Assembly (NCBI RefSeq): GCF_988242995.1
Contig: NZ_OZ547043.1
Strand: one strand, 5' to 3'
Length of the DNA stretch: 64,000 nt
This document shows, piece after piece, positions 19,480 through 25,399 of the stretch. How positions within the stretch are numbered: position 1 is the stretch's first letter; every line of letters starts with the position of its first letter. The translations under genes were made by a program, and so were the position numbers. The notes under the pieces were generated by a model. That model made no database searches, was not told the DNA's origin, and saw nothing but the letters and a program-made list of their open reading frames with translations.

Positions 19480-21150
19480 TCATTTTTTCGCTCTCACCGG
19501 CATCCCATTTGCCACATAATATCCCGCCGTGCTCCTCGGCAACGCATCCTTCCCGCGAATCATATCCGCCATTTTCTCGCCAATCATAATAGTCGTGGCG
19601 TTCAAATTGCCGGTGATAATCTGCGGCATAATTGACGCATCTACCACGCGCAGGCCTTCCAGCCCGTGTACGCGGCCTTCGGCGTCAACCACTGCCATCT
19701 CGTCATAACCCATTTTGCAGGTACCGCACGGGTGGAAGGCGGTTTCGGCGTGGTTACGCACGAACTCATCGAGCTGCTCATCCGTCTGGCATTCGACACC
19801 GGGGCTGATTTCGCGGCCACGATACTGATCCAGCGCCGGTTGATGCATGATCTCCCGGGTGATGCGAATTGCGTCGCGGAACTCCTGCCAGTCCTGCTCG
19901 TGCGACATGTAGTTAAACAGAATCGCTGGATGCTGGTGCGGGTCGCGGGATTTAATCCGCACATGCCCACGGCTTGGCGAGCGCATCGATCCGACGTGGC
20001 ACTGGAAGCCGTGCTCTTTCACTGCGTTCGAGCCGTTATAGTTAATCGCCACTGGCAGGAAATGGTACTGAATATTCGGCCACGCAAATTCCTCACGGCT
20101 GCGAATAAATCCGCCTGCTTCAAAGTGGTTGCTGGCACCAACGCCGGTGCCGCCAAACAGCCACTCCGCACCGATTTTCGGCTGATTCCACCACTGCAGG
20201 GCAGGGTAGAGGGAAACCGGTTCTTTGCACTCATATTGCAGGTACATCTCCAGGTGATCCTGAAGATTTTCGCCGACGCCGGGTAAATCATGCACCAGCG
20301 GAATATCAAACTCCGCCAGCAGTTCAGCGCTACCCACGCCGGAACGTTGCAGGATCTGCGGAGAGGCGATCGCACCTGCACATAACAGCACCTCTTTATT
20401 CGCTGTCGCGCGGGTTGGAATGGTGCTGTCGCCTTCCAGCCACTCGACGCCCACCGCGCGTTTGCCGTCAAAAATGATGTGATCGGTCATGGCGTGAGTA
20501 CGAATGGTCAGGTTAGGGCGCGATTTGGCCTGATCGAGATAGCTACGCGCGGTGCTGGCGCGACGGCCATGCGGCGTGACGGTGCGATCCATCGGGCCAA
20601 AACCTTCCTGCTGATAGCCGTTGAGATCGTCCGTGCGCGGGTAGCCTGCCTGCACGCCCGCTTCAATCATCGCTTCAAACAGCGGATTGACGCCGGGTTT
20701 GGAGGTAGTGACGCTCACCGGGCCATCGCCACCGTGGTAGTCGTTCTCGCCTACATCGCGAGTCTCGGCCTTGCGGTAGTAGGGCAGGCAGTCGAGATAA
20801 CTCCAGTTCTCCAGACCGGGTTCTTGCGCCCAGTTATCGAGATCCAGCGCATTGCCACGGATGTAGCACATGCCGTTGATCAGTGATGACCCGCCAAGCC
20901 CCTTACCGCGTCCGCACTCCATGCGACGGTTGTTCATAAACGGTTCCGGTTCCGTCTCATAGGCCCAGTTATAGCGTTTACCCTGTAGCGGGAATGCCAG
21001 CGCGGCGGGCATCTGGGTGCGGAAGTCAAAGCGATAGTCCGGGCCGCCTGCTTCAAGCAGCAGCACGGTTGTGTTCGGATCTTCAGTCAGACGGGTAGCG
21101 AGAACGTTGCCGGCTGAGCCGGCACCAATAATGATGTAGTCAAATTGCAA
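19480..21150 (-). CDS. betA: choline dehydrogenase (GMC oxidoreductase)
   Basis: ORF 19480..21195; [15 protein letters not shown] motif; GGAGG then TTG at 21150-21148 gives 556 aa. Confidence 0.9.
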
Positions 21151-21163
21151 ATAAACCTCCTGG

Positions 21164-22636
21164 TTAGAATATGGACTGGAATTTAGCCATCTCAACCTGG
21201 ATGGACTTCACCTGGGTGTAACTCTGGAGCGTCATCACGCCGTTCTCGCGACCAATGCCGGAGTGTTTGTAGCCGCCAACGGGCATCTCAGCAGGGGATT
21301 CGCCCCAGGTGTTGATCCAGCAAATACCCGCTTCCAGCTGATGAATGACGCGATGCGCGCGGTTCAGGTCCGCCGTCACGATGCCCGCCGCCAGGCCGTA
21401 GTCGGTATCATTGGCGCGGCGAATCACTTCGTCCTCAGATTCATAAGTGAGAAGCGACATCACCGGACCGAAGATCTCTTCGCGCACGATGGTCATTTCG
21501 TCGCGGCAATCGGTGAACACGGTCGGTGCAACCCATGCGCCGTTATCGAAGCCATCGCCTTTCAGTACATCGCCGCCGCACAGTACGCGCGCGCCTTCCT
21601 CTTTGCCTTTGGCGATGTAACGCAGCACGTTATCGCGATGCGGGAAGCTGACCAGCGGGCCAAAGTTAGTTTGCGGATCGAAAACGTCGCCCGCGCGAAT
21701 GCGCTCAACGCGCGCCAGAATCTTTTGTTCAAATGCGGCTTTGCATTTCGCCGGAACGAAGACGCGGGTGCCGTTGGTACACACCTGACCGGAGCTGAAG
21801 AAGTTCGCCATCATGGCGATATCAGCGGCGAGATCGAGATCTGCATCGTCGAAAACGATCAGCGGCGATTTACCGCCCAGCTCCATGGTCACTTCTTTCA
21901 GGGAGGAAGCTGCCGAGTTAGCCATCACTTTTTTGCCGCTGGCGACACCGCCGGTAAATGACACTTTGGCAATGCCCGGATGATCGGTCAGATATTGCCC
22001 GGTCTCCGCGCCCACGCCCGGCAACACGTTAAATACACCGTCCGGCAGGCCCGCTTCGCTGTAAATTTCAGCCAGCTTTAACGCGGTAAGCGGGGTGACT
22101 TCGCTCGGTTTGAAGATCATTGCATTGCCTGCCGCCAGCGCCGGGGCGGATTTCCACAGGGCAATCTGGATCGGGTAGTTCCATGCGCCAATCCCTGCCA
22201 CTACGCCCAGCGGTTCGCGGCGGGTATAGACAAATGACGTCTCACGCAATGGGATCTGGCTGCCTTCCAGCGACGGGATCAGCCCGGCGTAGTACTCGAG
22301 CACGTCCGCGCCGGTAACGATATCGACGGTTGAGGTTTCCGAATACGCTTTTCCGGTGTCGAGGGTTTCCAGTTTTGCGAGTTCGTTATTGCGTTCACGC
22401 AGAATATCAACGGCCCGACGCAGAATACGCGAGCGTTCCATAGCGGTCATCGCCGCCCAGATTTTTTGCCCCTGTTGGGCACTCTTCACGGCGCGATCGA
22501 CATCCTCACGCCCGGCGGCCTGCACGGTCGCCAGCACGTTACCGTTGGCCGGGTTAATGGTCTCGAAGGTGCGACCGCTGGTGGCGGAGGTATAACCACC
22601 ATGTATATAAAGCTGCTGTTCTGCCATTCGGGACAT
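21164..22636 (-). CDS. betB: betaine aldehyde dehydrogenase
   Basis: ORF 21164..22639; [15 protein letters not shown]...; aldehyde dehydrogenase family. Confidence 0.9.
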
Positions 22637-22649
22637 CACGTCTCCTCGG

Positions 22650-23237
22650 TTAATCGGTGGGTAAATGCTGAGTAATAAAGTGACGGGTCAGCGAGTGTGC
22701 GAGAGGTTTATCCAGCGGTTTGCCGCTCAGTGCCGCGCGCAGCCATAATCCGTCAATCAGCGCGGCAAGGCCGTAGCCCGCTTCCTGTGCCTGTTGGCGC
22801 GGTAACTCGCGGTGAAATTCGCTCACCAGATTCGACAACAAGCGGCGGCTGCTCACCTGCTGCAAACGGTAAAGCATCGGCTGATGCATACTGCTGGCCC
22901 AAAACGCCAACCAGGCTTTCATCGCAGCATTACTGACCTGCGATTCATCGAAATTCCCGTCAACAATCGCCTGTAATCGCTGCTCTGCACTGCCCTGCGG
23001 AAGAGCATGTAATCGATTCAAAACCGCGTCACGCAGCTGACTGGTGATATCGCGCATGGTTGCTTCCAGCAGACCATTTTTGTCCCTGAAATAGTGGCTG
23101 ATGATCCCCGTAGAAACGCCTGCACGGCGGGCGATCTGCGCGATCGTTGCATCGTGCATGCCCACTTCATTTATTGCTTCCAGCGTGGCGTCGATCAGTT
23201 GTCTGCGCCGGATCGACTGCATCCCCAATTTGGGCAT
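22650..23237 (-). CDS. betI: TetR-family repressor of bet genes
   Basis: ORF 22650..23255; start set to [22 protein letters not shown]; TetR HTH ([21 protein letters not shown]). Confidence 0.9.
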
Positions 23238-23365
23238 TTTCGCCACTCCATTCATCAGCGTTGTTTATCTATTAAAGCGGTTATTGATTGGACGTTCAAT
23301 ATAAAATGTGTCTTAATTGTTACGAATTTGATTTTAAATGGTAACAATAACAGTGGGGATACTGG

Positions 23366-25399
23366 ATGACAGACCTTTCACACAGCAGGGAAAAGGACAA
23401 AATCAATCCGGTGGTGTTTTACACTTCCGCCGGACTGATTTTGTTGTTTTCCCTGACAACGATCCTGTTTCGCGACTTCTCGGCCCTGTGGATTGGCCGC
23501 ACGCTGGACTGGGTTTCTAAAACCTTCGGTTGGTACTATCTGCTGGCGGCAACGCTCTATATTGTCTTTGTGGTCTGTATTGCTTGTTCGCGTTTTGGTT
23601 CGGTGAAGCTCGGGCCAGAACAATCCAAACCGGAATTCAGCCTGCTGAGCTGGGCGGCGATGCTGTTTGCTGCCGGGATCGGTATCGACCTGATGTTCTT
23701 CTCCGTAGCCGAACCGGTAACGCAGTATATGCAGCCGCCGGAAGGCGCGGGTCAGACGATTGAGGCCGCGCGTCAGGCGATGGTCTGGACGCTGTTTCAC
23801 TACGGCTTAACCGGCTGGTCGATGTATGCGCTGATGGGCATGGCGCTCGGATACTTTAGCTATCGTTATAATTTGCCGCTCACCATCCGCTCGGCGCTGT
23901 ACCCGATCTTCGGTAAACGGATTAACGGGCCGATTGGTCATTCAGTGGATATTGCAGCGGTAATCGGCACCATCTTCGGTATTGCCACTACGCTCGGTAT
24001 CGGTGTGGTGCAGCTTAACTATGGCTTGAGCGTACTGTTTGATATTCCCGATTCAATGGCGGCGAAAGCGGCACTGATCGCCTTGTCGGTGATCATCGCC
24101 ACGATCTCTGTCACCTCCGGTGTCGATAAGGGCATTCGTGTGTTATCGGAACTTAACGTTGCGCTGGCGCTGGGATTGATCCTTTTCGTGCTGTTTATGG
24201 GCAACACCTCGTTCCTGCTTAATGCGCTGGTGCTGAACGTTGGCGACTATGTGAATCGCTTTATGGGCATGACGCTCAACAGTTTTGCCTTCGACCGTCC
24301 GGTTGAGTGGATGAATAACTGGACGCTCTTCTTCTGGGCATGGTGGGTGGCATGGTCGCCGTTTGTCGGCCTGTTTCTGGCGCGTATCTCGCGCGGGCGT
24401 ACCATTCGCCAGTTCGTGCTGGGCACGTTGATTATTCCGTTTACCTTCACGCTGTTATGGCTCTCGGTGTTCGGCAATAGCGCGCTGTATGAAATCATCC
24501 ACGGCGGCGCGGCATTTGCCGAGGAAGCGATGGTCCATCCGGAGCGCGGCTTCTACAGCCTGCTGGCGCAGTATCCGGCGTTTACCTTTAGCGCCTCCGT
24601 CGCCACCATTACTGGCCTGCTGTTTTATGTGACCTCGGCGGACTCCGGGGCGCTGGTGCTGGGGAATTTCACCTCGCAGCTTAAAGATATCAACAGCGAC
24701 GCCCCCGGCTGGCTGCGCGTCTTCTGGTCGGTGGCGATTGGCCTGCTAACGCTCGGCATGCTGATGACCAACGGGATATCCGCGCTGCAAAACACCACGG
24801 TAATCATGGGGCTGCCGTTCAGCTTTGTGATTTTCTTCGTGATGGCGGGGTTGTATAAATCTCTGAAGGTAGAAGATTACCGCCGTGAAAGTGCCAACCG
24901 TGATACCGCGCCGCGACCGCTGGGGCTTCAGGATCGCCTGAGCTGGAAAAAACGTCTCTCGCGCCTGATGAATTATCCGGGCACGCGTTACACTAAACAG
25001 ATGATGGAGACGGTCTGTTACCCGGCAATGGAAGAAGTGGCGCAGGAGCTGCGGTTGCGCGGCGCGTACGTGGAGCTAAAAAGCCTGCCGCCGGAAGAGG
25101 GACAACAGTTGGGGCATCTGGATTTGTTGGTGCATATGGGCGAAGAGCAAAACTTTGTCTATCAGATTTGGCCGCAGCAATATTCGGTGCCGGGCTTTAC
25201 CTACCGCGCACGTAGCGGTAAATCGACCTACTACCGGCTGGAAACCTTCCTGTTAGAAGGCAGCCAGGGCAACGACCTGATGGACTACAGCAAAGAGCAG
25301 GTGATCACCGATATTCTTGACCAGTACGAGCGGCATCTTAACTTTATCCATCTCCATCGTGAAGCGCCGGGCCATAGCGTGATGTTCCCGGACGCGTGA
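23366..25399 (+). CDS. betT: choline transporter, BCCT family
   Basis: 677 aa, polytopic, divergent from betIBA. Confidence 0.9.
   Translation: MTDLSHSREKDKINPVVFYTSAGLILLFSLTTILFRDFSALWIGRTLDWVSKTFGWYYLLAATLYIVFVVCIACSRFGSVKLGPEQSKPEFSLLSWAAMLFAAGIGIDLMFFSVAEPVTQYMQPPEGAGQTIEAARQAMVWTLFHYGLTGWSMYALMGMALGYFSYRYNLPLTIRSALYPIFGKRINGPIGHSVDIAAVIGTIFGIATTLGIGVVQLNYGLSVLFDIPDSMAAKAALIALSVIIATISVTSGVDKGIRVLSELNVALALGLILFVLFMGNTSFLLNALVLNVGDYVNRFMGMTLNSFAFDRPVEWMNNWTLFFWAWWVAWSPFVGLFLARISRGRTIRQFVLGTLIIPFTFTLLWLSVFGNSALYEIIHGGAAFAEEAMVHPERGFYSLLAQYPAFTFSASVATITGLLFYVTSADSGALVLGNFTSQLKDINSDAPGWLRVFWSVAIGLLTLGMLMTNGISALQNTTVIMGLPFSFVIFFVMAGLYKSLKVEDYRRESANRDTAPRPLGLQDRLSWKKRLSRLMNYPGTRYTKQMMETVCYPAMEEVAQELRLRGAYVELKSLPPEEGQQLGHLDLLVHMGEEQNFVYQIWPQQYSVPGFTYRARSGKSTYYRLETFLLEGSQGNDLMDYSKEQVITDILDQYERHLNFIHLHREAPGHSVMFPDA

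Follow-up and report, generated by a model that had tools for sequence, protein, structure and literature searches.

In Escherichia coli, the choline dehydrogenase gene betA very probably starts naturally at a conserved TTG codon

A UUG start codon is read by the initiator tRNA as methionine. In Escherichia coli K-12 MG1655, the betA gene (b0311, NP_414845.1; 325577..327247) is annotated from such a codon and encodes a protein of 556 aa. About 3% of E. coli genes have UUG starts, and proteins with GUG or UUG starts are reported to carry an N-terminal methionine (bioRxiv 10.1101/063800). We analysed a stretch of 64,000 nt from contig NZ_OZ547043.1 (assembly GCF_988242995.1; the window, to whose positions all coordinates below refer unless K-12 is named), which carries betA with the same operon layout, length and TTG start as K-12. 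The window is E. coli DNA, and a 501-nt query spanning its betB-betA junction was 100% identical to strain 746. The K-12 b0311 sequence is identical to the window from the betB end through the first ~79 nt of betA. Further in, a few residues of BetA differ (e.g. PNTTV in the window and PNTSV in K-12), and none of these differences lies at the start site. RefSeq starts betA at the same TTG in strains 746, LTE950, O157:H7 and K-12 MG1655.

The locus comprises the following features.

19480..21150, minus strand: betA coding sequence, 556 aa plus stop (TIGR01810, 1026.7 bits; Pfam GMC_oxred_N and GMC_oxred_C)
21148..21150, minus strand: TTG, very probable initiation codon of betA (sequence, PGAP and K-12 annotation, conservation, INRI-seq peak at K-12 position 327247)
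21155..21161, minus strand: Shine-Dalgarno sequence AGGAGGT, whose core GGAGG (21160-21156) ends 5 nt ahead of the TTG; GGAGGT is invariant in 34 TTG-type junctions
21164..21166, minus strand: betB stop codon TAA, 13 nt before the betA TTG, a geometry that suits translational coupling
21193..21195, minus strand: upstream in-frame TTG within betB, a decoy 15 codons before the real start, which sets the longest ORF of 571 aa
21164..22636, minus strand: betB, encoding betaine-aldehyde dehydrogenase; starts with ATG 22636-22634, separated from the betI stop by 13 nt (NF009725)
22650..23237, minus strand: betI, encoding the choline-responsive repressor and opening the betIBA operon; likely ATG at 23237-23235 (BetI profiles)
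23366..25399, plus strand: betT (choline BCCT transporter), divergent from betIBA (NF007399, 1314 bits)

The identity of betA was clear from profile scores. The TIGR01810 equivalog model for BetA was matched with 1026.7 bits (cut-off 732.1), which places the product in the BetA family, and NF002550 with 999.7 (cut-off 605). The Pfam domains GMC_oxred_N and GMC_oxred_C scored 214 and 141.7 bits, respectively, and the GxGxxG FAD motif is retained as GAGSAG. From the near-identity to the E. coli K-12 gene, we infer that the BetA protein of the window would oxidize choline. BetI, BetB and BetT profiles matched the adjoining ORFs in the expected order and orientation, and NCBIfam matches of these neighbours identify betA as the last gene of betIBA with betT divergent from it. 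The betaine-aldehyde dehydrogenase profile of NCBIfam was matched by betB over its full length. The longest betB ORF opens at a GTG (22639; 22637-22639), and both the profile, as NF009725 starts at residue 2 of this ORF (the ATG), and the K-12 length favour the adjacent ATG 22636. The longest ORF of betI opens at ATG 23255 (23253-23255), and BetI profiles start at its residue 7-8; the ATG at 23237 fits these profiles and gives 195 aa by its coordinates. Both internal junctions of betIBA have the same geometry, i.e. TAA, a 13-nt spacer with a Shine-Dalgarno sequence, and a start codon (betI stop 22650-22652 to betB ATG 22636-22634, and betB stop 21164-21166 to betA TTG 21150-21148, all on the minus strand). 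The betI-betB junction thus shares the 13-nt geometry, but its start codon is ATG.

On the minus strand, betB ends with GAG ATG GCT AAA TTC CAG TCC ATA TTC TAA. The stop codon is followed by CC AGGAGG TTTAT, and the betA TTG opens the sequence TTG CAA TTT GAC TAC ATC ATT ATT GGT GCC GGC TCA GCC GGC. The spacer between the Shine-Dalgarno core and the TTG is TTTAT (5 nt), and the calculated duplex energy of GGAGGT with the anti-Shine-Dalgarno sequence was -11.0 kcal/mol. From the TTG to the stop (21150 to 19480), betA has 1671 nt, corresponding to 556 codons plus stop, and its product, choline dehydrogenase, begins with (L/M)[13 protein letters not shown]. Numbered from the TTG, the GAGSAG motif for FAD binding occupies residues 9-14. 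A sequence-only reading of the window had placed the betA start at TTG 21150-21148, preceded by GGAGG and giving a product of 556 aa; our analysis agreed in positions, 5-nt spacer and length.

That reading had left two options for the TTG: a natural non-ATG start, or an ATG-to-TTG change that may lower choline dehydrogenase expression, with a comparison of betA in other strains as the check. We made this comparison with 5426 complete E. coli genomes. The 501-nt junction query was found in 5179 of them; ten of the matches sit on plasmids, and 247 genomes had no betB-betA junction match. We then used 41-mer megablast queries in which position 21 was occupied by the first start-codon base, and seed words of 28 bases. 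With this centring, every seed word contains the start base. The TTG version matched 5183 records in the 5179 genomes, and 5149 of these records were 100% identical. The ATG and GTG versions had zero matches among the 5426 genomes. Hence, the TTG is present in every complete genome that bears the locus (5179/5179), and the arrangement of Shine-Dalgarno sequence, spacer and TTG is identical in all of these and kept in representatives of 33 other species. In an alignment of five strains, a K-12-like strain, O157:H7, 746 and a strain with an IS1-disrupted betA were identical to the window over 131 nt. In RefSeq, betA of each of these strains is annotated from the TTG.

A recent mutation from ATG (or GTG) to TTG in the strain or its lineage, with weakened expression of choline dehydrogenase as its consequence, has in its favour that ATG is the commonest start codon in general and that more distant BetA genes use it. 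The absence of ATG and GTG versions from all 5426 complete E. coli genomes, against 5179 with TTG, and the occurrence of the TTG in K-12 MG1655 and 33 other species make such a mutation virtually inconceivable, and the searches with the three 41-mers ruled out a strain-specific change. Of the two options, the natural non-ATG start was therefore right: the codon is fixed in E. coli, shared with 33 other species and annotated in K-12.

Two deviating betA genes were seen among the E. coli isolates. In NRZ100600 (NZ_OZ501616.1), betA is a pseudogene that is cut by an IS1B insertion after ~74 codons. In O157:H7 (NZ_CP038302.1), betA is annotated with 1689 nt (562 aa) vs 1671 nt (556 aa) in K-12 and the window; since the start is shared, the difference in length must be C-terminal.

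To cover other genera, one genome per species was scanned, and the codon aligned to residue 1 was compared in the best 80 BetA loci. TTG was found in 33 loci, belonging to Pseudocitrobacter, Enterobacter, Lelliottia, Leclercia, Huaxiibacter, the Klebsiella oxytoca group, Raoultella, Citrobacter amalonaticus and C. sedlakii. ATG stood at the aligned position in 19 loci, three of them from Pseudomonas and 16 enteric (Trabulsiella, Pluralibacter, Cedecea, Pantoea, Kosakonia, Tatumella, Rosenbergiella and relatives). The remaining Pseudomonas loci and all Moraxella loci (28 together) had an ATG one or two codons further upstream. Escherichia and Shigella loci were absent among the best 80 despite the E. 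coli query, and the top locus was that of Pseudocitrobacter (97%). One conceivable cause is that the genome representing the species lacks the locus, another is an oddity of the pattern scan. In Pantoea sp. SOD02 (NZ_CP102605.1), the betA locus is located on a 927-kb plasmid (megaplasmid or chromid).

In an unbootstrapped neighbour-joining tree of BetA, the ATG-type proteins of Moraxella, Pseudomonas, Erwiniaceae and Cedecea fell outside a core Enterobacteriaceae clade. This core clade was mostly TTG-type, with the ATG-type Trabulsiella and Pluralibacter nested inside. The simplest reading of this distribution would be an ancient switch from ATG to TTG in an ancestor of the core clade, with sporadic returns to ATG later on; the weakness of the tree precludes a count of switch events. 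Trabulsiella combines an ATG start with the MQFDY N-terminus of the TTG clade, and Pluralibacter an ATG start with the MEFDY N-terminus and the Shine-Dalgarno sequence typical of the ATG group. These patterns give a hint of either a reversion or a recombined 5' end.

We also considered other start codons in the same reading frame. The longest ORF (19480-21195) has 571 aa, and the betA TTG is its residue 16. According to the sequence-only reading, starting at the first in-frame ATG would lengthen the protein by 15 residues, and this ATG has no Shine-Dalgarno sequence. The codon 15 positions upstream is not an ATG but a TTG (21195-21193), and no in-frame ATG occurs between the in-frame stop TGA (21210-21208) and betA codon 47. 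The ATG at 21190-21188, which is a betB-frame codon one base off the betA frame, is probably what had been seen. The second part of the statement was borne out, as the upstream TTG sits within betB and is not preceded by a Shine-Dalgarno sequence; for this reason the conclusion holds despite the mislabelled codon.

Translation from the upstream TTG would yield a protein of 571 aa with 15 extra residues. This codon comes first among the start-type codons of the ORF, and 23 of the 33 TTG-type species have it at the corresponding position. Its persistence can be attributed to the conservation of the betB coding sequence itself, in which it lies. In the other ten species, the stretch from the preceding in-frame stop to the conserved TTG holds no in-frame ATG, GTG or TTG. 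Seven of these belong to the Klebsiella oxytoca/Raoultella cluster, where a 14-nt spacer changes the frame relation to betB and an in-frame stop stands at codon -15, and three to the Citrobacter amalonaticus/sedlakii group, in which the upstream TTG is missing. Moreover, the family profiles begin close to the conserved TTG: on the 571-aa ORF, position 1 of TIGR01810 aligned with residue 19, position 5 of NF002550 with residue 17, and position 1 of Pfam GMC_oxred_N with residue 18. The 15 upstream residues are thus outside the BetA family and covered by no BetA or GMC profile, and no annotation starts betA at the upstream TTG. Taken together with the lack of a Shine-Dalgarno sequence, these observations make initiation at this codon highly improbable. 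Downstream, the next canonical in-frame starts of betA, codon 29 (GTG) and codon 47 (ATG), lie past the GAGSAG motif, so that initiation at either would lose the FAD-binding motif. The cross-species frames and stops and the start positions of the profiles ruled out the 571-aa form and the starts at GTG29 and ATG47.

Experimental data on the K-12 gene are available from INRI-seq, in which a synthetic pool that represents each K-12 coding sequence by its segment from -30 to +150 is translated in a cell-free system and initiating ribosomes are trapped by retapamulin (PMC9825163). The printed betA template equals the window sequence from -30 to about +79. In Table S2 of that study, the betA start (b0311, 327247, minus) is listed as identified in five of five replicates, with peaks of 104.8, 89.4, 84.6, 69.7 and 91.3 CPM, obtained in vitro and with heights that are not rates and are not normalized to template abundance (PMC9825163). 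The peaks at the betB ATG were 29-52 CPM and those of betT 30-58 CPM (PMC9825163). The annotated K-12 betI start (b0313, corresponding to ~23237 in the window) had no peak in any replicate (PMC9825163 Table S2). The list of peaks at unannotated sites, which we take to be Table S3, has no entry for b0311 (PMC9825163). The template begins at -30, so that the upstream TTG (-45) is missing from it and the assay itself does not bear on that codon. Results of Ribo-RET in vivo from Meydan et al. 2019, tabulated in the same Table S2 (PMC9825163), show no betA or betB peak, presumably because the operon was uninduced. In the literature, including N-terminomics, we found no N-terminal protein sequence of BetA; a b0311 entry was not found in the TRAINSPOTTER N-terminomics supplements, of which the files were incomplete, and a full-text search on the betA start codon or N-terminus returned nothing specific.

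The distance to the Shine-Dalgarno sequence, the start of homology, the conservation and the initiation in vitro all identify the TTG as a genuine UUG start. We conclude with high confidence that betA naturally initiates at TTG 21150-21148 and that this codon is a normal trait rather than a lesion of the strain. As is general for UUG starts, the initiator tRNA would read the codon and BetA would begin with fMet. The strong AGGAGGU 5 nt upstream is expected to place the 30S subunit. Because the Shine-Dalgarno sequence starts 3 nt and the TTG 13 nt after the betB stop, ribosomes that terminate on betB probably aid the initiation of betA, either by unfolding the region or by re-initiating, as far as the geometry suggests. 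In the predicted fold from -50 to +40, a hairpin pairs the first two Shine-Dalgarno bases with the betB end, and this fold was no more stable than those of shuffled sequences (z=-0.85). A structured RNA element around the betA start was dropped as a candidate on this ground. The TTG would have replaced an ancestral ATG well before the origin of E. coli, in which it is now fixed; it is common to a wide clade of Enterobacteriaceae.

It is plausible that the TTG lowers BetA expression. In one reporter study, expression from GTG and TTG starts taken together reached 10-100% of that from ATG (bioRxiv 10.1101/063800). A modest constitutive reduction of BetA output compared with an ATG version is the one functional effect of the TTG that we would propose. 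Whether selection keeps the TTG as a deliberately weak start is a separate matter. Such a start could hold BetA below BetB and thereby limit toxic betaine aldehyde or an overload of membrane-associated flavoprotein, or it could make BetA synthesis dependent on betB translation or on IF3 levels. The 34 sequences, which differ from the window at 25-54% of fourfold-degenerate sites, all have the TTG; of 199 such sites, just 8 are invariant among them. The GGAGGT (-11.0 kcal/mol) is likewise invariant at all 34 TTG junctions; at ATG junctions, the energies range from -5.2 to -12.1 kcal/mol. The comparison of the 34 TTG junctions with 11 distinct ATG junctions gave a trend only (Mann-Whitney P=0.057), with data that are not independent. 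The trend runs in the same direction as the tendency of suboptimal start codons to come with stronger Shine-Dalgarno sequences, described by Belinky et al. (PMC5622118).

However, the relevant changes at the first base of the start codon are T-to-A and T-to-G, and with this restriction the case from conservation is weak. Among 110 fourfold-degenerate sites with a pyrimidine majority, 19 (17%) have no purine in any of the 34 sequences, which are not independent of each other. Retention of the T at a single site is therefore expected in about one of six cases without selection and is not significant, and the statistical case for selection on the T was rejected by this test. ATG in Trabulsiella and Pluralibacter, nested among TTG lineages in the unsupported neighbour-joining tree, indicates that an ATG is tolerated. 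In the cell-free INRI-seq assay, the betA TTG peak (70-105 CPM) was about twice as high as that of the betB ATG (29-52 CPM), so that the initiation region is not obviously weak, although these peaks are not rates and not normalized to template (PMC9825163). We therefore regard selection for a weak start as unlikely. The broader proposal, that the TTG, the invariant GGAGGT and the 13-14-nt gap after the betB stop form one selected tuning device, appears quite doubtful. Such a device would match BetA output to that of BetB or hold it lower, which would curb betaine-aldehyde toxicity, or it would confer sensitivity to IF3 and to translational coupling under osmotic stress, and the ATG codons of Trabulsiella and Pluralibacter would be secondary reversions. 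If it were true that the weak codon sets the BetA:BetB ratio, betA would be a small, tidy case of start-codon tuning within an operon, and such tuning might serve the engineering of glycine-betaine synthesis. Beyond correct annotation, the significance of the natural TTG start is small.

Compared with described genes, the ATG-initiated betA genes of Trabulsiella, Pluralibacter, Cedecea, Pantoea, Kosakonia, Tatumella, Rosenbergiella, Pseudomonas and Moraxella are orthologous, with 77-90% protein identity. As in the window, the enterobacterial genes of this type follow an upstream stop codon after a short spacer. Their Shine-Dalgarno sequences vary in strength, and the spacer after the upstream stop is often longer than in the TTG type. 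ATG-type BetA proteins mostly begin with MEFDY, in Pseudomonas and Moraxella mostly with one or two residues before it. Like other UUG-start genes of E. coli, betA is preceded by a Shine-Dalgarno sequence, which is stronger than average (GGAGGT, -11 kcal/mol), and its start lies 13 nt past the stop of the preceding cistron; otherwise, nothing distinguishes it from them. The TTG start of betA is already known from the K-12 reference and the RefSeq annotation of E. coli. Our analysis adds that the codon is fixed across E. coli, common to many enteric genera, apparently derived from an ancestral ATG and always accompanied by a strong Shine-Dalgarno sequence.
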